Positions 286 through 48,464 of a stretch of 48,464 nt of DNA are shown one piece after another; positions within the stretch are counted from its first letter, which is position 1; every line of letters begins with the position of its first letter. The notes beneath the pieces were generated by a model, which saw nothing but the letters and a program-made list of their open reading frames with translations, searched no databases and had not been told where the DNA came from. Source of the stretch: an uncultured Candidatus Saccharibacteria bacterium (lineage in GTDB: Bacteria; Patescibacteriota; Minisyncoccia; Minisyncoccales; UBA1441). The position numbers and the translations under genes are program-made. Location of the stretch: NCBI GenBank assembly GCA_964623505.1, contig CAZUSP010000002.1, positions 1 to 48,464 on the forward strand, written 5' to 3'.

Positions 286-850
286 AAGCCGAAGTAAAAA
301 TGATTTTTCAAAATATGTTCAACCGACGAAAGGGGCATTTTCTTTCCACTTTTCGGACCAACCAAGCCAAGAGAAAACATTTTGTCTCTGATTTGCGACA
401 AGGTGTAGTTTCCGGTGGCAAAAGCCCGCAAAACTTCTTTTATTTTGTTAAAAGTTTTTTTATTCGGTCCAATAGTTCTCAAACGAGGTTCGTTGAAATA
501 TCTGAGCGGGGCTTTTGCCAAAAGTTCGCCTCGCCTGATTTTCTGCCGAATACCGCGCAAAATGTTTTCTCTCAAATTGTCGGTGTAGTATTTCGCTTGC
601 CCGAAAGCGACACTTAACATAAATTTTCCTTGCGGTGTCGCTTCAAACCAAAATGTGGGAAATTTTAGCGAGGTAATTTTTCCGGTATCAACCAAGCAAA
701 TCACTTTGCCGCCGTCTATTGAATTTCTGGCTAATCTATCGGGATTCCATGCTAAAATTCCCGAAGCTCGGCAAGTTGCGCTTCAATAGACAAAATTTGT
801 CTTTCTTCTTCCTCTGTGGATTTTCGGCAATAGATGAAGCATTGGATCAT
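286..850 (-). pseudogene. serine recombinase (resolvase/invertase-type, large-serine-recombinase-like) pseudogene
   Basis: The minus-strand translation starts MIQCFIYCRKSTEEEERQILSIEAQLAELREF, which includes the catalytic-Ser motif, then hits a stop. It resumes out of frame as DRLARNSIDGGKVICLVDTGKI...FMLSVAFGQAKYYTDNLRENILRGIRQKIRRGELLAKAPLRY...SSVEHILKNHFYFGL. About 50 aa of the catalytic domain are missing, and the C-terminus is cut at position 286. Confidence 0.8.
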
Positions 851-989
851 AATTTTTACTCCTTAATTATTTTGAAAAAGGCAACGCTTTACATCGACAA
901 TTTAATGAAATCTCGCTTTGCCTTTCACCAAAGGCGAAAGAAAAAAATCGGCTTCTGTTTTTCAAAACAGGTAAACTTTTCAAGTTTAC

Positions 990-1012
990 GAACCGCCAAA
1001 TCAGCCAGCAAA
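990..1012. repeat. 23-bp perfect inverted repeat, right copy (gaaccgccaaatcagccagcaaa)
   Basis: Exact reverse complement of 263-285. It lies directly upstream of the 5'-truncated transposase reading frame. Confidence 0.9.
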
Positions 1013-2153
1013 TACCACCATTTTGAGCGAAGTTTAGTCAAGCATCACCGCTTACCAGATAAAGAGAGACAAAAGATAGTGGCTCTTCTCTGCCGTCGTT
1101 ATCCTGATTTTAAACCAACTCATGCTCAAGAGAAACTTGAAGAAAAGCGTGGTATTAACCGATGACCCCAAGACCATTAGACAGATAATGACCCAGGAGG
1201 GTCTATGGAAGCCCAAGGAACGCAGAAAAGCAGATTACCGGAGCGAGCCGGAGAGCTCGTAAAATCATTATGGAGAAAGGGGCAGTTTGGGTGGCTCCTA
1301 TGAGCATTGGTTTAAACAGAAAGATCCATCCTGCTGCTTGTTAGCAGCCATTGATGATGCCACCGGGATTGTTGCTCAAGCTAAGTTTATTAATGATGAA
1401 GGAATGTTTCCAGTGTTTGCCTTTTGGCAGGAATATTTCTTAATCCATGGCGAGCCCAGATCTATCTATTTGGACAAACTTTGGACTTACTACAACAATC
1501 TTGCTTCAGCCCCAGATGATGAAGAGATACTTATCCAGTTTCAGAGAGAAATGAGAGAGCTATCAATAGAGCCCATTACTGCTCATAGTCCTCAGGCCAA
1601 AGGCAGAATAGAACGTCTCTTTAATACCTTTCAGGATAGATTAATCAAAGAGCTGAGATTAAACAATATTTCTGACATTAAAGCGGCTAACAAGTTCCTT
1701 AAACAAGAATTTCTGCCCTGGTTTGATGACAAATACCTTGTTCAACCAACCAAGAGAACCAATCTTCATCGCAAGCTTAGCCAGAAAGAGAAAAAACAGT
1801 TGCCAGTCATTCTTTCTCGTCAGTCCTAAGGAGCAGTGCATAATGACTTCACTATTAGATTTAACAACCAATGGTATCAGCTTTTAAAAGACCAGCCAGC
1901 CGCTATTCTTCCCAAAGATAGGGTTTTAATTGAAAAAAGATTAGATAATTTTCTCTGGTTCTGTCCAAGAGGCAAGTATTTAAATTACAAAGTCCTGCCA
2001 GCCAAGCCCCAGAAACAAAACAATCAATCCTGGGTTATTGTTGCCCCAGGAAAGAAAGAGAGAAAACTCTACAAGCTTGGCAAAGACCATCCCCGGAGAA
2101 ACCTTCCCATCAATATGCCTTCTCCCACCAGAGAAGAAGTGACAGTTTCTTAA
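1013..2153 (+). mobile_element. degraded IS transposase gene (rve/DDE integrase core, ISNCY/IS481-like), 5'-truncated with at least 4 frame disruptions
   Basis: Fragments lie in three frames: YPDFKPTHAQEKLEEKRGI, then MTQEGLWKPKERRKADYRS, then GGSYEHWF..CCLLAAIDDATG...SIYLDK...HSPQAKGRIERLFNTFQDRLIKELRL, then NDFTIRFNNQWYQL...GKYLNYKVLP. The N-terminal HTH region is absent. Confidence 0.8.
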
Positions 2154-2157
2154 TTAA

Positions 2158-2199
2158 GAAACCTGACATTTCTACTTCTTTTAAAACCTGATATTTCTA
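2158..2199. repeat. two direct copies of aaacctgaYatttcta spaced 25 bp apart, just after the transposase stop
   Basis: gaaacctgacatttcta (2158-2174) and aaacctgatatttcta (2184-2199). They may be subterminal IS repeats. Confidence 0.5.
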
Positions 2200-2228
2200 A
2201 ATCCTTTTGACGTTGATAAGTTTATCTA

Positions 2229-2256
2229 TTGACAGAGGTTTCTGCGAGGGTACAAT
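2229..2256 (+). promoter_or_regulatory. candidate sigma70-type promoter for the surface-protein gene
   Basis: TTGACA (2229-2234), 16-nt spacer, TACAAT (2251-2256), about 50 nt upstream of the ATG at 2308. Confidence 0.35.
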
Positions 2257-2307
2257 AAAGAAGGTTGTTTTACTGTTAATAAAACAAATAATTAACAAAA
2301 TAAAAAC

Positions 2308-3903
2308 ATGAGCTCTAAAAAGATTATTTTAGGCGCTACTCTTTTGCTTGTTGCTGTTTTGGCCTTTAGTTTTTATCCCAGGTCGGCCAAAGCTCAAACG
2401 GTAGAAGAACTTCGGGCCCAGATAACTGAGCTAATTCAACCAATCCAGCGCATTCTAGAACAACTGGCCCAGTTGCAAAAAATTCAGTGTCAATCTAATG
2501 CTGATTGTGTTTGGTGTGGAGCATTTTGCATGAGTAAAAAGCTTGCAAGAAATTGTCCGCAAGTTTTACCGCCCACCGACTCTCAATGTGTTTGTAAAGA
2601 CGGAAAATGCGTGATCGAGAAAATAATCCAGCCATCGGCTGAAGATCCTGTTTCAGGCACCCTTTCGGTTGATAAAACTACAGCTAAAGTAAGAGAAAGC
2701 ATTACTCTGACCGTTAATGCCAAAGACAACCAGGGGGTAAGTGGTGTCCATGCTTTCTATCAAGGAAGATGGCATTGGCAAGGTTGTAACTGGGCAACTA
2801 CTTGTACCAAAACCTTTACTTTTTCGGAATCAACAGCCGGGACATATACTTATAGTGGCTATGTTCATGGAAGAAAAGTTGATGGTTTTTTAGAAGGAGC
2901 ATATACTACACCCCGCTTTGTGGAGGTAAAAATAACTGCCGTCCCAACTGCTTGTCCTGAGATTGCCCCAGCCTGTGGTAGCAATATAGATGAATGTATT
3001 AAGGCAGCACTTGAATTAGAGCGTCAATATCCAGGCTGTGAATATGTAAAGATGTGTGCTCAATGTAATTATCCAACCACCTGTAATGATGTTTGTAAAG
3101 CCAAAGGTTATTTAACCGGAAACTGCCGCGGTTGGTCAGTTACTCCAATTGCTGAAATGGGGTGTAAGGCTGGAGAATTAAATGTTGGATACACTCTTGA
3201 TTGTTATGCACCTGCCAAATTAGTCGGCATAGGCAAAACCTGTTGTTGTCAAAAAGCTGTACCTGCTTCATCCATCACTGTTCTTTCTCCTAACGGAGGG
3301 GAAAGGTGGATTTCCGGAACGTCTAACAATATATCCTGGAGATCAACAGGAATAAACAGAGTAAATATTTATTTGGTTGCTTCGTATAGAGGTGAACCTG
3401 AAATAGTCTGTGATTGTCTTGTTGGTCCGAATTGTTGTGCTCCTTGCGGCAGGCTAATAGCCTCGAATGTTCCTGCCAGTCCCTCAACATTTACTTGGAA
3501 TGTTCCAGCTAACGAAAGATTAACCGATAGGGCAAAAATCGCTATCCAATCAGCCGATGGCTATCCAAGTTGCACCGCCGATTACAGCGATAATTATTTC
3601 AGCATTACCTCTCCAGTTGTTACTCAATACACACTTACTGTTTCCAAAAATATAACGGCAGGGGGCAGCGTTATCAGCTCGCCCTCAGGCATTAATTGCG
3701 GAACAACCTGCTATGCTAATTTTACCAGCGGGTCAACTATTGCTTTGACCGCTACTCCCGCCAGCGGCTACACCTTCGCTGACTGGTCAGGTGCCTGTAA
3801 GGGAACCTCTGCTACCTGTACTGTTACAATGAATTCAAATCGATCGGTAACGGCTAATTTTGTAAGAGCGCGAGGCAATTACATACCGATTATTCCTTTC
3901 TAA
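2308..3903 (+). CDS. secreted Cys-rich multidomain surface protein (signal peptide, coiled segment, Cys-knot-like modules, Ig-like module, C-terminal InlB-B-repeat-like module)
   Basis: N-terminal KKIILGATLLLVAVLAFSF...AKA signal. Many CxxC/CC clusters. The C-terminal YTLTVSKNITAGGSVISSPSGINCGTTCYANFTSGSTIALTATPASGYTFADWSGAC matches the divergent InlB B-repeat pattern. Confidence 0.75.
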   Translation: MSSKKIILGATLLLVAVLAFSFYPRSAKAQTVEELRAQITELIQPIQRILEQLAQLQKIQCQSNADCVWCGAFCMSKKLARNCPQVLPPTDSQCVCKDGKCVIEKIIQPSAEDPVSGTLSVDKTTAKVRESITLTVNAKDNQGVSGVHAFYQGRWHWQGCNWATTCTKTFTFSESTAGTYTYSGYVHGRKVDGFLEGAYTTPRFVEVKITAVPTACPEIAPACGSNIDECIKAALELERQYPGCEYVKMCAQCNYPTTCNDVCKAKGYLTGNCRGWSVTPIAEMGCKAGELNVGYTLDCYAPAKLVGIGKTCCCQKAVPASSITVLSPNGGERWISGTSNNISWRSTGINRVNIYLVASYRGEPEIVCDCLVGPNCCAPCGRLIASNVPASPSTFTWNVPANERLTDRAKIAIQSADGYPSCTADYSDNYFSITSPVVTQYTLTVSKNITAGGSVISSPSGINCGTTCYANFTSGSTIALTATPASGYTFADWSGACKGTSATCTVTMNSNRSVTANFVRARGNYIPIIPF

Positions 3904-43371: not shown

Positions 43372-43490
43372 GCTCGGGTGGCGGCGTCCTACTTTCGCGG
43401 AAAACCACTATCATCGGCCTAGAAGTATTTCACGACTGAGGTCGGAATGGGATCAGGTGGGACAACTTCAGCATAGCCGCCACCCGAAAG
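43372..43490 (-). rRNA. rrf: 5S rRNA
   Basis: The reverse complement reads ...GGTGGCGGCTATGC...CCCACCTGATCCCATTCCGACCTCAGTCGTGAAA...GTAGGACGCCGCCACC. Helix I pairs 43374-43385 with 43476-43487. Confidence 0.9.
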
Positions 43491-43758
43491 CATTTTTAGC
43501 AACTATTAATTGCCAGCCAATTTAAAAGCAATAAAGAAGGTTTAAGATTATTAGTATCTCTCGGCTCAATACCTTACGGTACTTACACCTGAGACCTATC
43601 AACCCGGTCGTCTTCCGGGAATCTGTGAATCCTAATCTTGAAGTGAGCTTCGCACTTTAGATGCTTTCAGTGCTTATCTCATCCCGACATAGCTACCCAG
43701 CAATGCTCCTGGCGGAACAACTGGTACACCAGAGGTCAGTTCATTCTGGTCCTCTCGT

Positions 43759-44143
43759 CAAGTCTCTCCTGTATTTCTGCAGGCTTAGACTATATCTTCA
43801 TCCGTCCAAACGAACGGAGCCGGCGTGTGATGAAAGTTAATGCTTAAAAGCTTCCCTTCCATCTCTTGCTTATTCAGCAAGAAGTCGTTACGGGGACAAG
43901 CCATGGCTCTAAAATAGCGCTTATATCAAAAGGAAACCAGCGATATAAGCCAGATCAACGGCTTTAACTTTTGCTTGTCTTCCCACGGTATTGCCTTAGT
44001 TGATATTCGGTCCTCAAGTAAATTGCCCCACCAGACATTGGACCAGCAAGTCCTATGGGTTCGATGGTCGAATATTTAATGAAGGTTTCACCGTTTTTAG
44101 CCAGATTGTCATCGCAGATTACTCTGCGAAGTAGCAATTTCTT
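43759..44143 (-). mobile_element. group I intron 1, inserted in the sarcin-ricin loop (about E. coli 2656)
   Basis: Flanking exons join to CUUAGU|ACGAGAGGACC. The 5' exon ends in U and the intron ends in G. The core includes GGCAAUACCGUGGGAAG and GAAGAUAUAGUCU. 385 nt. Confidence 0.8.
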
Positions 44144-44205
44144 ACTAAGAATGACTCTTCTCAAGATTCAGCGCCTGCGGTAGATAGGGACCAACCTGTC
44201 TCACG

Positions 44206-44903
44206 CTAATTTTTGCTTGCATCTGTTACCAGATGGATCGGACTATACCATCATCCTTTCTAAAAAAGGAGACCGACGTATTATGAAAGTTTTCTCTTCC
44301 ATCTTCATGCAAAACATGAAAGTCTCTACGGGGTCGATATATGACTAATGCGCCTCTTTGAATAATTCAAGTCTTTGAAAGTATTAGCTGGCTGTACAAG
44401 CCGAGCGAAATTATTTTCGCTTTTGATTTTCTTTCTTTGATCAAGAATTTTCAGTATAAGGTCTGCCCGCTTTTTCATCACTAAAAATGGCTTAACTGAC
44501 TTTAGAAACTTCTCAATTTCTTCATCTTTGCTAACAACATGCTCCCGGATGCCATTTTTTCTGATTCTTAAGCAACCATCCTATGTCTTTGCAAACCCCT
44601 TTCGAATTCTTTTTGATGTTTTTGCGACTGAAATAACACTACGTACGGCACAACCTGAAAGTTGTAACGATTGGTTGTGTTTGGCTTTAATCGCACATAG
44701 ATACCTCCGTCGCCATCCAAGAATCCCGCCAGGTATGTTTGACGCAGACTTTGTGATTTAGACATATACGACTTCCCTCGGTATTACCCTAACTTATGAC
44801 AAGTTGAAAGACAATAGCTAGGAATTCACCGATATGAGTCGGTTTTTCAATTCACTTTACAGTGGAAAGCCGCCGTGTGAATTCGATGTTGTGGTTCGTT
44901 TTA
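44206..44903 (-). mobile_element. group I intron 2 at about E. coli 2593 (the I-CreI-type site)
   Basis: Exons join to GGGUUCAAACCGU|CGUGAGACAGGUUGG. U(-1) and terminal G are present. The core includes GGUAAUACCGAGGGAAG and GGUAUAGUCC. 698 nt. Confidence 0.85.
44326..44765 (-). pseudogene. I-CreI-like single-motif LAGLIDADG homing endonuclease gene, disrupted
   Basis: MSKSQSLRQTYLAGFLDGDGGIYVRLKPNTTNRYNFQVVPYVVLFQSQKHQKEF, then frame changes and a TAG. It continues CLRIRKNGIREHVVSKDEEIEKFLKSVKPFLVMKKRADLILKILDQRKKIKSENNF, collinear with the I-CreI architecture. Confidence 0.75.
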
Positions 44904-44996: not shown

Positions 44997-45490
44997 CTGT
45001 CGTATTTTACTCTTCTTACGAAGAGGTTCGGACTATACCTTCATCCATTCTTCTCTGAGAGAAAAATGGAGTCGGCATCTGATAGTGTGTTTTGACACTA
45101 TCTCACTCTACTTAGTATTCTCTCGCGAAAACACTAAGATCGAGATTAGTCTCTACGGGATTTAACCAATTTATAACGAAAGACTTTAGCTGATTGTACT
45201 TCCAATCAACGTAGTCTCGCTGATTGATGCTGCGATTTATCTCTAAAAAGTCATCCGCACGCCCTTTTAGCCGCCTTGAATAGCCATCTCCTGGAATTGT
45301 TCCAACTAGGATAGATCGCTGAAATTGGTCTAAACTTCCCACGGTATTGCCCATAAATTAAAAGACTCAGGTAGCGAATTCTACCATATTTTAATCATGG
45401 GTTTCACCGTTATGAGCCGATTTTCTCTGCCCTCGTCCCAAGACAGAGCTATCCCGATTGCTCGGGAAAACACCCCGATATGTGTTTTTG
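44997..45490 (-). mobile_element. group I intron 3 at about E. coli 2500
   Basis: Exons join to GUUCGACACCU|CGAUGUCGGCUC. U(-1) and terminal G are present. The core includes GGCAAUACCGUGGGAAG and GGUAUAGUCC. 494 nt. Confidence 0.85.
45165..45354 (-). pseudogene. N-terminal remnant of a LAGLIDADG endonuclease ORF
   Basis: MGNTVGSLDQFQRSILVGTIPGDGYSRRLKGRADDFLEINRSINQRDYVDWKYNQL, with LAGLIDADG-like LVGTIPGDG. The ORF then runs into intron core sequence, so only about a third of a full-length enzyme remains. Confidence 0.6.
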
Positions 45491-45728: not shown

Positions 45729-45971
45729 CAATCGTGTTGGCTCGATCTTATAATTGAACATTGGAATCATAAATGGGGAAATTATTTGCCTGAATCTTTC
45801 AGCGCTTGAGCCGATAATATAAATTCTCCATTTTTTCTTCGCATACTTATTTTGAGCATGTAATCTTGCTTCGACACCACACCTCACTTTAAGTGTTTTC
45901 CGCAAACTTTTCAGATCATTCTCGGTAAAATCCAAACTATGAATTTGTGTTTCGATTAATCTTGAATACAT
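45729..45971 (-). pseudogene. C-terminal remnant of a LAGLIDADG endonuclease ORF in the intron 3' (P9-side) extension
   Basis: ...DFTENDLKSLRKTLKVRCGVEARLHAQNKYAKKKWRIYIIGSSAERFRQIISPFMIPMFNYKI resembles the second half of LAGLIDADG enzymes. No LAGLIDADG motif or N-terminal half is present. Confidence 0.5.
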
Positions 45972-46265
45972 GCTTCGAGCACGCTCTATGTCGCCATAGA
46001 GTTCAGACTATATCTTCTCTGCCTAAGCAGAGTCCGGCGTGTAGTCGTTGAGGGGTCATGTCTGTTATAAAACAGACAGCGGACTTCCCTGCTGATTGTC
46101 TGCACTGACAGATTTTCACTGGCGGATATTCATTATATCCACCGAGTACTGTCAGATACTCAGAGTTCCCAGCATACAGCCGGAATGCCCCATTTCTTGA
46201 TTATAACTTGGCTTCATCTGCTGTCTAGCAACCAAACAGCATATTACTGATACAATCAAAATTTA
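45729..46265 (-). mobile_element. group I intron 4 at about E. coli 2262 (just 3' of the P-loop helix)
   Basis: Exons join to GGGGCGCUCGCCU|CCUAAAUAGUAACGGAGGCG, restoring the CGCCUCC/GGAGGCG helix. U(-1) and terminal G are present. The core includes CAGCAGGGAAG, GACUACACGCCGG and GAAGAUAUAGUCUGAAC. 537 nt. Confidence 0.8.
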
Positions 46266-48464
46266 AGGCGAGCGCCCCACTCAAACTAACCCCCAGACAC
46301 GGTCCCGGCCGTTTTTGAGGCGGCTCGGTTAGAACTAGGACCACAACAGGATGGTGTTTCATTGACGACTCCACCCAACCCGAAAGTCAGGCTTCAAAGT
46401 CTCCCATCTACGCTACGCAGCTGCAACCCTAGGCCAATATCTGGTTATAGTAAAGCTCCCGGGGTCTTTCCGTCTAGCCGCAGGTAACCGGCATCTTCAC
46501 CGGTACTGCATTTTCACCGGGCATCTCGTTGAGACAGTTCTCCGGTCGTTACGCCTTTCATGCGGGCCTGAACTTACCAGGCAAGGGATTACGCTACTTT
46601 AACACGGTTAGAGTTACCGCGGACGTTTACCGGGGCTTCGCTCAGTCAGCCTCTCTCCGAAGAAAGAGACCGCCAAGGTTAACCTTACGGCACTGGTCAG
46701 GCGTCAGCCCCTATACATCCTCTTACGAGTTAGCAGGGACCTGTGTTTTTGATAAACAGTCGCCAGAGAGTCATTTGCTGTGCCCCAAGCAAGCTTGGGG
46801 AGTCCTTATTGCAAACTTACGGACACTGATTTGCCGAGTTCCTTAACGAGATTTTACCCGTTCACCTTAGCACTTTTATGCCTACCCACCTGTGTCGGTT
46901 TTCGGTACGGAGCCCGTTGAAAACGAAACTAAAACTTTTCCGGGAAGAGTGCTCACTAGAATTTTCTTTCCCAAGGGAAAGAATTTCGGTTGATCTTGGG
47001 TTGCCCCTTAATCCGCCGACCCAAATCCAATAATGGGATCCGACTACTACTCTTCGTCATTTTAGATCTATTCAACCGGCGGGCTGGAATATTAACCAGC
47101 TGTCCATCAGCTACCCCTTTCGGGTTGACCTTAGGACCGCCTAACCCTTGGATGATTGTCATTGCCAAGGAAACCTTAGGTTTTCGGTGCTCAGGGCTCT
47201 CACCTGAGTTGCGGTTACTCGTGCCAACATTCTCACTTCTCCCGGCTCCACCACCGCTCTCGCGACGACTTCAATGCCAGAAGAACGCTTCTCTACCGAC
47301 CAACTCAAAAGAGTTGGCCCCATGTCTTCGGTATTAGGCTTAGGCCCGTAAATTTTCGGCGCGGAACTTCTTAGCTGGTAAGCTATTACGCACTTTTTAA
47401 AGGATTGCTGCTTCTAAGCAAACCTTCCAGGTATCTTCGAAACTCCACTTCCTTACCACACTTAGCCTAATTTAGGGACCTTAGACGATGGTCTGGGTTG
47501 TTTCCCTTTTGCCCATGGACCTTAGCGCCCACAGACTGACTGCCCGACTCGAACGCACCAGGAATTCGGAGTTTGGTTAAACAGGGCGGGACGAACCCAA
47601 CCAAGTCTATCCAGTGCTCTACCTCCCAGGCGAAGCATCGGACGCTAGCCCAAAAACTATTTCGAGAAGAACCAGCTATTCCCAGGCGCGATTGACTTTT
47701 CACCGCTTGCCACAGCTCATCCCAAAGTTTTGCCACACTTACGGGTTCGGACCTCCACGCGTGCTTCCACGCGCTTCATCCTGGCCATGGCAGGATCGCC
47801 TGGCTTCGGGTCTTGCTCATACTGCTAACGGGTATTTAGCCCTCGCTTTCACTACGCTTCTCGGGGAGACCCCGATTAAACTCGCAGTATAAACAAACTC
47901 GTTGGCTCGTTCTGCAAAAAGCACCCCGTCACGGCCCGAAGGCCGCTCCGAGTCATTGTAAGCATAATGGTTTCAGGTCTATTTCAACGCCCTCACCGGG
48001 CTGCTTTTCACCTTTCCCTCACGGTACTAGTTCGCTATCGGTGATATTGAGTATTTAGTCTTTCCCGGTAGTCCGGGATGATTCCCGCTGGGCTTTCCGT
48101 CCCAACGGTACTCAGGAAAGAACCAGGAAGTCGATCCTTTTCGTCTACGGGGCTATCACCCTCTTTGGCCCACTCTTTCCAGGGCGGTTCGACTAAAGAT
48201 CTTTTTCCTTTAATGATTCTCCCTACAACCTTTTCGACTGAGCAAGGCTCTGTCGAAAGTTTAGACAACACCCCTTTTCGCTCGCCGCTACTAAGGGGAT
48301 CTCTGACGATTTTTCTTCCTCCGCTTACTGAGATGTTTCACTTCAGCGGGTTCGCCGTCTCATTAAAGAGACTGTTTCGGGTTTAGCCGAAACGGGTACT
48401 CCCATTCGGAAATCTCCGGATCAAAGGTTGCTACACACCTCCCCGAAGCTTATCGCAGTTACGC

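Follow-up and report, generated by a model that had tools for sequence, protein, structure and literature searches.

The 23S rRNA gene of the window, by which we mean the whole stretch of 48,464 nucleotides that was analysed, contains a group I intron in the centre of the sarcin-ricin loop (SRL), AGUACGAGAGGACC. The insert is 385 nt long (44143..43759, minus strand) and lies between U2656 and A2657 of the 23S rRNA (E. coli numbering), splitting the loop as AGU|ACGAGAGGACC. This confirms the initial annotation, which had placed an insertion within the SRL at exactly these coordinates. The insert is very probably a member of a CPR family of group I introns that has lost its open reading frame (ORF) by deletion and persists as a ribozyme, and we infer that it is removed from the transcript by splicing. 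The case shows the reach of homing introns, as few 14-nt segments known in biology are as strongly conserved and as essential in function as this target.

The 23S rRNA gene occupies the final 5 kb of the window on the minus strand, and its 5' end is lost at the window edge. A 5S gene (43484..43376, minus strand) follows downstream in normal operon order, and past it lie ordinary chromosomal genes encoding MreC, a PBP2-type transpeptidase, two aminoacyl-tRNA synthetases and a Mur ligase. Site numbering was obtained by alignment to E. coli rrl (locus L121, 23S at 545–3448, 2904 nt; the match begins at 3201), in which 43758 corresponds to A2657 and 44144 to U2656. In addition, E. coli positions 2640–2680 were read directly, and U2656, A2657, A2660 and G2661 were checked in the letters.

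The 5' exon reads ...GAGUCAUUCUUAGU (longer stretch ...GAGAAGAGUCAUUCUUAGU, minus strand) with its last U at 44144, and the 3' exon opens with ACGAGAGGACCAGAAUGAAC (longer stretch ACGAGAGGACCAGAAUGAACUGACCUCUGGUG, minus strand) with its first A at 43758. At the end of the 5' exon (44144..44153, minus strand), the 5' strand of H95, CAUUCU (44153..44148), is followed by the 5' part of the SRL, UAGU (U2653–U2656, 44147..44144), which is also the exon half of P1. The start of the 3' exon (43742..43758, minus strand) consists of the 3' part of the SRL, ACGAGAGGACC (A2657–C2667, 43758..43748), and the 3' strand of H95, AGAAUG (43747..43742). Both exon ends were assigned from the sequence, the E. coli numbering and the intron-less relative L123 described below. 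The intron itself starts with AAGAAAUUGCUAC and ends with ...GAGACUUG. An insertion after the U at about position 2656 had been favoured at the outset, and the boundary U2656|A2657 is now settled by the U·G pair that closes P1 (22 of 22 aligned introns), by the terminal G (84 of 84 listed introns) and by a covarying P9.0 of 3 bp.

As predicted in the initial annotation, joining of the exons rebuilds the H95 stem CAUUCU/AGAAUG. A scan of metagenome contigs with the joined-exon sequence matched 30 contigs. The loci L123 and L147 are 92.6–98.9% identical to the exons of the window along the whole gene and carry no insert at L2656; their uninterrupted sequence, ...CATTCTTAGTACGAGAGGACCAGAATGAAC..., equals the two exon ends of the window joined, base for base. 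Because close relatives carry exactly the joined sequence without interruption, the insert is neither due to chance nor an assembly artefact. The nearest genome, L017 (89.5% identical over 2.4 kb), contains an L2656 intron of 810 nt with an intact ORF of 161 aa. The intron-less allele and the version with intact endonuclease, for which a search of related genomes had been proposed, thus both exist, and the life cycle of a homing endonuclease is represented in one set of sequences by the intact gene in L017, the deleted gene in the window and the empty site in L123.

Ribozyme fold

The Rfam model Intron_gpI (RF00028) matched 43767–44153 (minus strand) with 30.5 bits, corresponding to E values of 5.7e-5 for 5.2 kb and 5.7e-6 for 521 nt of searched sequence. 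The gathering score of 50, which is an operational threshold and not a biological feature, was not reached, and three of the four introns in this 23S gene score below it. The low score is likely explained by a model that lacks P7.1/P7.2 and the P6-loop remnant, and by a wrong alignment of the middle of the intron. There, Rfam put P7, P3' and P8 on the LAGLIDADG-coding remnant, which is incorrect according to the family alignment. The idea that the ORF fragment doubles as part of the ribozyme core was dropped, as the true P6', J6/7, P7 (CCCCGUAACGACU) and P3' are located approximately 50–110 nt downstream; with the core placed elsewhere, the ORF fragment is merely filler of the P6 loop.

The structure was derived from conserved blocks among related L2656 introns, and covariation was analysed in a MAFFT alignment of the window intron with 21 naturally ORF-less relatives (n = 22). 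Standard pairs were found in 84.3% of the cells, compared to 37–45% when the partners were slid by 1–3 columns, 42 pairs had changed on both sides, and the observed score was reached by none of 500 shuffles. Covariation supports P2, P3, P5, P6a, P9.0 and P9, while P1, P4 and P7 show little or no variation across the 22 introns, and P5a, P7.1, P7.2 and P8 were misaligned by MAFFT. The unconstrained MFE fold of the window intron (–118 kcal/mol, z –3.45; none of 100 shuffles was as good) shows P1, P2, P3, P4, P5, P5a, P6, P6a, P7.1, P7.2, P8, P9.0 and P9. P7 is missing from it because it forms a pseudoknot, which MFE folding cannot draw.

All elements are given on the minus strand. The P1 hairpin UAGU|AA-GAAA-UUGCUA (44132..44147) is paired in 99.2% of the cells and invariant or almost so in the 22 introns; its internal guide UUGCUA (44137..44132) provides the U2656·G wobble at the 5' splice site, and in some relatives the loop is swapped for an extended stem with a GNRA cap. 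In the P2 hairpin UCGCAG-AGUAAU-CUGCGA (44112..44129), all six pairs show compensatory changes and 95.5% of the cells are paired. P3, in which CUGGC (44100..44104) pairs with GCCGG (43820..43824), was found in the alignment and also in the unconstrained MFE fold; four of its five pairs covary (GC/CG/UA/AU) and 95.5% of the cells are paired. The P4–P6 domain (43892..44094), likewise recovered by alignment and MFE fold, contains P4 ACGGUG/UACCGU (100% paired), P5 CCUU/AAGG (95.5% paired, with covariation in three of four pairs), a P5 extension made up of P5a AUAUUCG/CGAAUAU and inner hairpins (MFE fold), and P6 GGG/CCC with P6a GACAAGC/GCUUGUC (98.7% paired, three covarying pairs).

J6/7 and the 5' strand of P7, A(C)GACU (43883..43888, inside the invariant CCCCGUAACGACU), are invariant in 22 of 22 introns and pair with AGUCU; the bulged C adjoins a G-C pair that is the predicted guanosine-binding site. 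Between P7 and P3', P7.1 (CUUGCU/AGCAAG) and P7.2 (AUGGAAG/CUUUCAU; together 43830..43881, window MFE fold) would form a peripheral extension of the IA (IA3-like) type, and the relatives have a hairpin-rich segment of variable sequence at the same place. The P8 hairpin UCCGU-UCGUUUGG-ACGGA (43801..43818, MFE fold) is represented in relatives by CCCUA.../...UAGGG. J8/7 together with the 3' strand of P7, UGAAGAUAUAGUCU (43787..43800), is a conserved core motif and agrees with the Rfam consensus AAGAUAUAGUC. In 22 of 22 introns there is no variation in AAG, in UAUAGUCU or in the G before AUGAAG, and the fourth base of GAAGAUAU is A or G. The 3' end of the intron (43759..43786) comprises P9.0, P9 and the omega-G. 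In P9.0, AAG (43786..43784) pairs with CUU (43762..43760), with covariation in all three pairs and 81.5% of the cells paired, and the helix ends one base before the terminal G at 43759. The P9 hairpin has a GAAA loop and one C·A mismatch, and it is 97% paired with covariation in five of six pairs.

The classification of the insert as a group I intron in the initial annotation therefore holds, based on the full set of core helices, the U·G pair in P1, the omega-G, the covariation among the 22 introns and the Rfam match. The window intron keeps 81 of the 82 alignment columns that are conserved (≥90%) in the family. The sole departure is in J3/4, where it has UAAAAA instead of UAAUAA; the exchanged base is at 44096 (intron nt 48), and 79 of 79 relatives have U. 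P10 is unsupported in the window intron, with at most one A-U pair available.

A hairpin loop in the P5 arm has the sequence GGUCC (44044..44040, intron nt 100–104), which 56 of 83 family members share, while most of the remainder have a close variant. Sequences complementary to the loop exist inside the intron (GGACC, 44013..44009; GAGGACC in 64 of 83 members) and in the 3' exon (the invariant GGACC of the SRL, 43752..43748). Pairing with the internal GGACC shows no covariation in the family, as both partners are near-invariant. In seven members with a short P5 arm, the GGUCC loop is kept and the internal partner is absent. A contact of this loop with the 3' exon could possibly stand in for the missing P10.

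Endonuclease remnant, intron family and further introns of the gene

The P6 loop contains the remnant of a LAGLIDADG_1 homing endonuclease ORF (43921..43986, minus strand), which was recognized by tblastn with 56 intact family ORFs. It starts with a GUG inside ACCGUGGGAAG, comprises 21 codons (VGRQAKVKAVDLAYIAGFLLI) and is closed by a UAA stop, ending with ...AYIAGFLLI* just short of the catalytic DGDG. The first 19–21 residues of the relatives' ORFs align to intron nt 158–214, VGRQAKVKAVDLAYIAGFL, with E values down to 8e-7, and the aligned stretch is followed by two further codons and the stop. The earlier description of a mere LAGLIDADG fragment (..DLAYIAGFL and a stop) is thus accurate. 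A Pfam search with the remnant alone gave no match, and the complete domain of approximately 160 aa, with the LAGLIDADG helix and its catalytic acidic residue, is absent from the window copy but present in intact homologues of the relatives. The 3' strand of P6a is still present.

Intact ORFs are found in 56 of the 84 listed family introns and encode approximately 159 aa (about 137–206 codons). In most members they extend from the GUG inside ACCGUGGGAAG at the P4'/P6 junction to the UAA of CCCCGUAACGACU in J6/7 and therefore fill the P6 loop exactly. Two representative intact ORFs belong to LAGLIDADG_1 (E 2.5e-9 and 5e-11). The nearest solved structures are those of I-CreI, I-MsoI and I-CvuI, which are enzymes of the L2593 site. 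Compared to the nearest genome, L017, approximately 390–430 nt of the ORF are missing in the window. Just downstream of the point where the ORF breaks off, GAUAUAAGC repeats the LAYI-encoding GCUUAUAUC perfectly in inverted orientation (~43951..43915), and the two give a hairpin of 9–10 bp over the deletion junction. This hairpin may be a trace of the origin of the deletion, or it may have been selected to close the loop.

GTDB genomes, each representing one species, were scanned for a terminal G joined to the 3' half of the SRL, and at least 120 of them matched. Among the 120 matches listed, at least 84 have the exon sequence ...UAGU followed by a window-like intron start, AAGAAAUUGCUACUUC..., and a terminal G; all 84 listed family introns have the 5' end UAGU|AAGAAAUUGCUAC and G as last base. 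Their lengths are bimodal: 56 of the 84 measure approximately 690–1040 nt (most of them 750–830 nt) and contain an ORF, and the rest measure 238–683 nt. In blastn searches, the window intron was 69–93% identical to dozens of family members, and the best match among those listed was L017 (75% over nt 1–213, E 1.6e-35). Nearly all listed intron-bearing genomes are labelled Patescibacteria or CPR, whereas L017 is labelled only as 'bacterium'. Judged from these sequences and labels, the L2656 intron family is widespread in Patescibacteria (CPR). By the labels of its nearest genomes, the host of the window is probably a CPR bacterium as well.

The intron-end pattern was also matched by four loci labelled Elusimicrobiota (L008), Gammaproteobacteria (L036), Smithella (L046) and Chloroflexia (L112). 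For L008 and L036, an ORF-bearing intron of 780–804 nt with the family 5' end was confirmed; for L112 the 3' end alone was seen, and L046 matches at the border of its contig. Compared to E. coli, the 3' exons of L008, L036 and L112 are only 71–77% identical; CPR sequences are the best matches of L008 and L036 and take the first two places for L112. We consider wrong binning or wrong labels more likely than an extension of the family beyond CPR and do not claim such a spread, since L008, L036 and L112 carry non-CPR labels but CPR-like exons.

Besides the L2656 intron, the 23S gene contains three further group I introns, inserted behind E. coli positions 2262, 2500 and 2593, each preceded by a U and with G as its last base. 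The L2262 intron (46265..45729, minus strand) contains an ORF fragment of 83 aa without Pfam match, the L2500 intron (45490..44997, minus strand) an N-terminal LAGLIDADG_2 fragment of 80 aa, and the L2593 intron (44903..44206, minus strand) an N-terminal LAGLIDADG_1 fragment of 65 aa and, behind it, a separate C-terminal piece. None of the four intron ORFs in this 23S gene is full length, and in at least three of them the break is visible. L017 shares the L2593 and L2656 introns with the window but not the other two, and it contains an additional insertion near E. coli 1930–1950; L123 has none of the four introns. Such a patchwork among close relatives would be expected from gain by homing combined with loss.

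The Rfam bacterial LSU model gave a single match (46156..48464), yet this match claims model positions 60–2925; because it stops at 46156, it in effect misses the exons past the first intron. With standard rRNA annotation, about 2.6 kb of this 23S gene would be cut off. Models for CPR 23S genes have to allow for introns; this region is treated incorrectly by the LSU model as well as the group I model of Rfam.

Proposed splicing and its alternatives

In the proposed mechanism, the pre-rRNA would be transcribed with the intron inside. P1 would arise by pairing of the guide UUGCUA with UAGU of the SRL (2653–2656) plus the two leading bases of the intron, which puts the U2656·G wobble at the 5' splice site. 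Exogenous guanosine, held at the G-C pair beside the bulge in P7, would attack after U2656. P9.0 would bring the terminal G (43759) into the same pocket, and U2656 would be ligated to A2657, recreating AGUACGAGAGGACC. The expected spliced junction is ...UUAGU-ACGAGAGG..., i.e. ...CAUUCUUAGU-ACGAGAGGACCAGAAUG.... The exons are probably aligned by the H95 stem of the rRNA itself (CAUUCU/AGAAUG), which flanks P1 but does not overlap with it, and additionally by P9.0, but not by P10.

The element would have spread by DNA homing, mediated by a single-domain LAGLIDADG endonuclease of the I-CreI type. With the deletion of approximately 390–430 nt of the endonuclease gene, the capacity for homing on its own enzyme was lost, and the ribozyme alone persists. 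We infer splicing from the intact core, from the conservation of the exons, from the single rRNA operon that is usual in CPR and from the removal of rRNA insertions from transcripts reported by Brown et al. (2015), as cited in Tsurumaki et al. (2024; PMC11270868), where CPR genomes are described to have usually one rRNA copy. Considering the critical function of the SRL, the host would be fully dependent on accurate splicing for any working ribosome.

It is possible, albeit rather unlikely, that the ribozyme is real but lost the ability of self-splicing together with its LAGLIDADG protein, which may have acted as maturase, and that it now needs a host factor or the endonuclease/maturase of another intron. 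The A at the J3/4 position that is invariant in the relatives, the C·A mismatch in P9 and the missing P10 would be consistent with such a dependence. However, the core helices are all intact, and 28 of the 84 listed family members have no ORF, indicating that the ribozyme evidently survives without it. Furthermore, none of the four intron ORFs in the gene is full length, which argues against an intron-encoded maturase acting in cis.

A dead or dying rRNA copy or a splicing-defective intron, in which a split SRL would be tolerated as part of a pseudogene, is very unlikely. Four introns with decayed endonuclease genes in a single gene might point in this direction, and the copy number of the rRNA operon is invisible from one window, but more than one rRNA copy would be unusual for a CPR genome (PMC11270868). 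The exons are moreover 90.6–98.9% identical to those of intron-less L123 gene-wide, with the SRL and the 2500 and 2593 regions intact, the intron has kept 81 of 82 family-conserved positions, and the 5S gene follows in normal operon order.

Alpha-sarcin kills ribosomes by nicking inside the SRL, and an equivalent cut would result if the insert were an intervening sequence (IVS) that RNase III excises, with the fragments of the 23S rRNA remaining unligated. Fragmenting IVSs do occur in bacterial 23S rRNA, probably also at 23IS2 and 23IS4 of CPR (PMC11270868), but this explanation is hardly credible here, as such IVSs are short and take the place of variable-helix tips. The present insert interrupts a functional loop of 14 nt that is invariant, possesses the complete group I core including the U·G at the 5' splice site, the terminal G and P9.0, and lacks at its ends the long terminal stem needed by RNase III (MFE fold).

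If the L2656 intron is a splicing ribozyme, its splicing might in addition serve as a licensing or hibernation step of the 50S subunit, because unspliced 23S rRNA would be unable to form the factor-binding SRL. This role is highly speculative and improbable; if true, it would explain, in slow-growing, host-dependent bacteria, why the ribozyme is intact long after the decay of the endonuclease. A related and similarly improbable idea is that GGUCC of the P5 arm pairs with GGACC of the 3' exon (G2663–C2667), in which case the ribozyme would read both halves of the SRL and this contact would replace P10.

Relation to known introns

Insertions were found in 82% of 348 CPR 23S genes surveyed by Tsurumaki et al. 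(2024, J Bacteriol; PMC11270868), and the frequent sites were defined as 23IS1–14. LAGLIDADG_1 dominates at positions 1917, 1931, 1952, 2593, 2604 and 2657 (23IS6–8 and 23IS12–14), the group I introns at 23IS9, -10, -11, -13 and -14 were unreported in other bacteria, and ORF-less copies as well as 'degenerate ORFs with large deletions' occur at the same sites (PMC11270868). Comparison with this catalogue of LSU intron sites, a step proposed in the initial annotation, identified the site as 23IS14. Its 'position 2657' is the same insertion point, with 2657 as the first exon base past the insert (PMC11270868). Like the intron in the window, 23IS14 introns have a group-I-like fold, their full-length copies contain a single-domain LAGLIDADG_1 ORF, ORF-less or degenerate copies coexist with these, and multiple introns occur per 23S gene. 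The 2024 paper does not name the site as SRL and gives no secondary structure for the intron; the window copy is the ORF-deleted form.

The statement that the site is not one of the classic positions 1917, 1931 and 1951 was correct, whereas the rarity that it implied was overstated, because position 2657 (23IS14) is catalogued as a frequent CPR site (PMC11270868). The intron in the window is an ordinary endonuclease-less copy of a published mobile element; site and phenomenon alike have been in the literature since 2024. In the literature searched, an intron in the SRL was not found as a topic, and the position was covered there by the 2024 site list alone.

The introns at L2593, such as Cr.LSU with I-CreI and Synechococcus L2593, reside in chloroplast and cyanobacterial LSU rRNA. 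Like the L2656 introns, they combine a P2 of small size with an ORF located in P6, and they have a P7.1/P7.2 extension of approximately 60 nt that resembles the one predicted at L2656 (PMC1995217). The endonucleases of both are of the homodimer type of the I-CreI family. The 3' cores of the window's own L2593 and L2656 introns align with 94 identities in 167 columns and have the blocks CCCCGUA..GACU, AGAUGGAAG...CUUUCAU and UAUAGUC in common, which suggests that the two site families are sisters. In contrast to L2593, the L2656 site is located 63 nt downstream in domain VI and not in domain V, the guide is a different one (UUGCUA, which reads UAGU), and the P5 extension is bigger.

The classic introns at L1917, L1931 and L1951 (Coxiella, Simkania, Thermotoga) are also group I introns with single-motif LAGLIDADG endonucleases in highly conserved rRNA, but occupy other sites than L2656. 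According to the title of reference 28 in PMC11270868, the Simkania intron remains unspliced in the rRNA. A comparable retention seems implausible for an insert in the SRL.

Loci L005, L019, L066, L095 and L113, as well as many loci labelled 'uncultured Candidatus Saccharibacteria', contain L2656 introns with ORF, and the ORFs with Saccharibacteria or Saccharimonadales labels have a common N-terminus, ...EKAYIAGFL. In the 2024 survey, almost no group I introns or endonuclease genes were found in the rRNA of Saccharibacteria (PMC11270868), and some of the Saccharibacteria labels may be generic placeholders. Finally, four loci from MFD-series MAGs (L037, L086, L104 and L106; labelled Alphaproteobacteria, proteobacterium or Verrucomicrobiae) have no intron and read CCCUAGG-ACGAGAGGACC, with a G replacing the universally conserved U2656, which could be either a true variant of the SRL or a systematic sequencing error.
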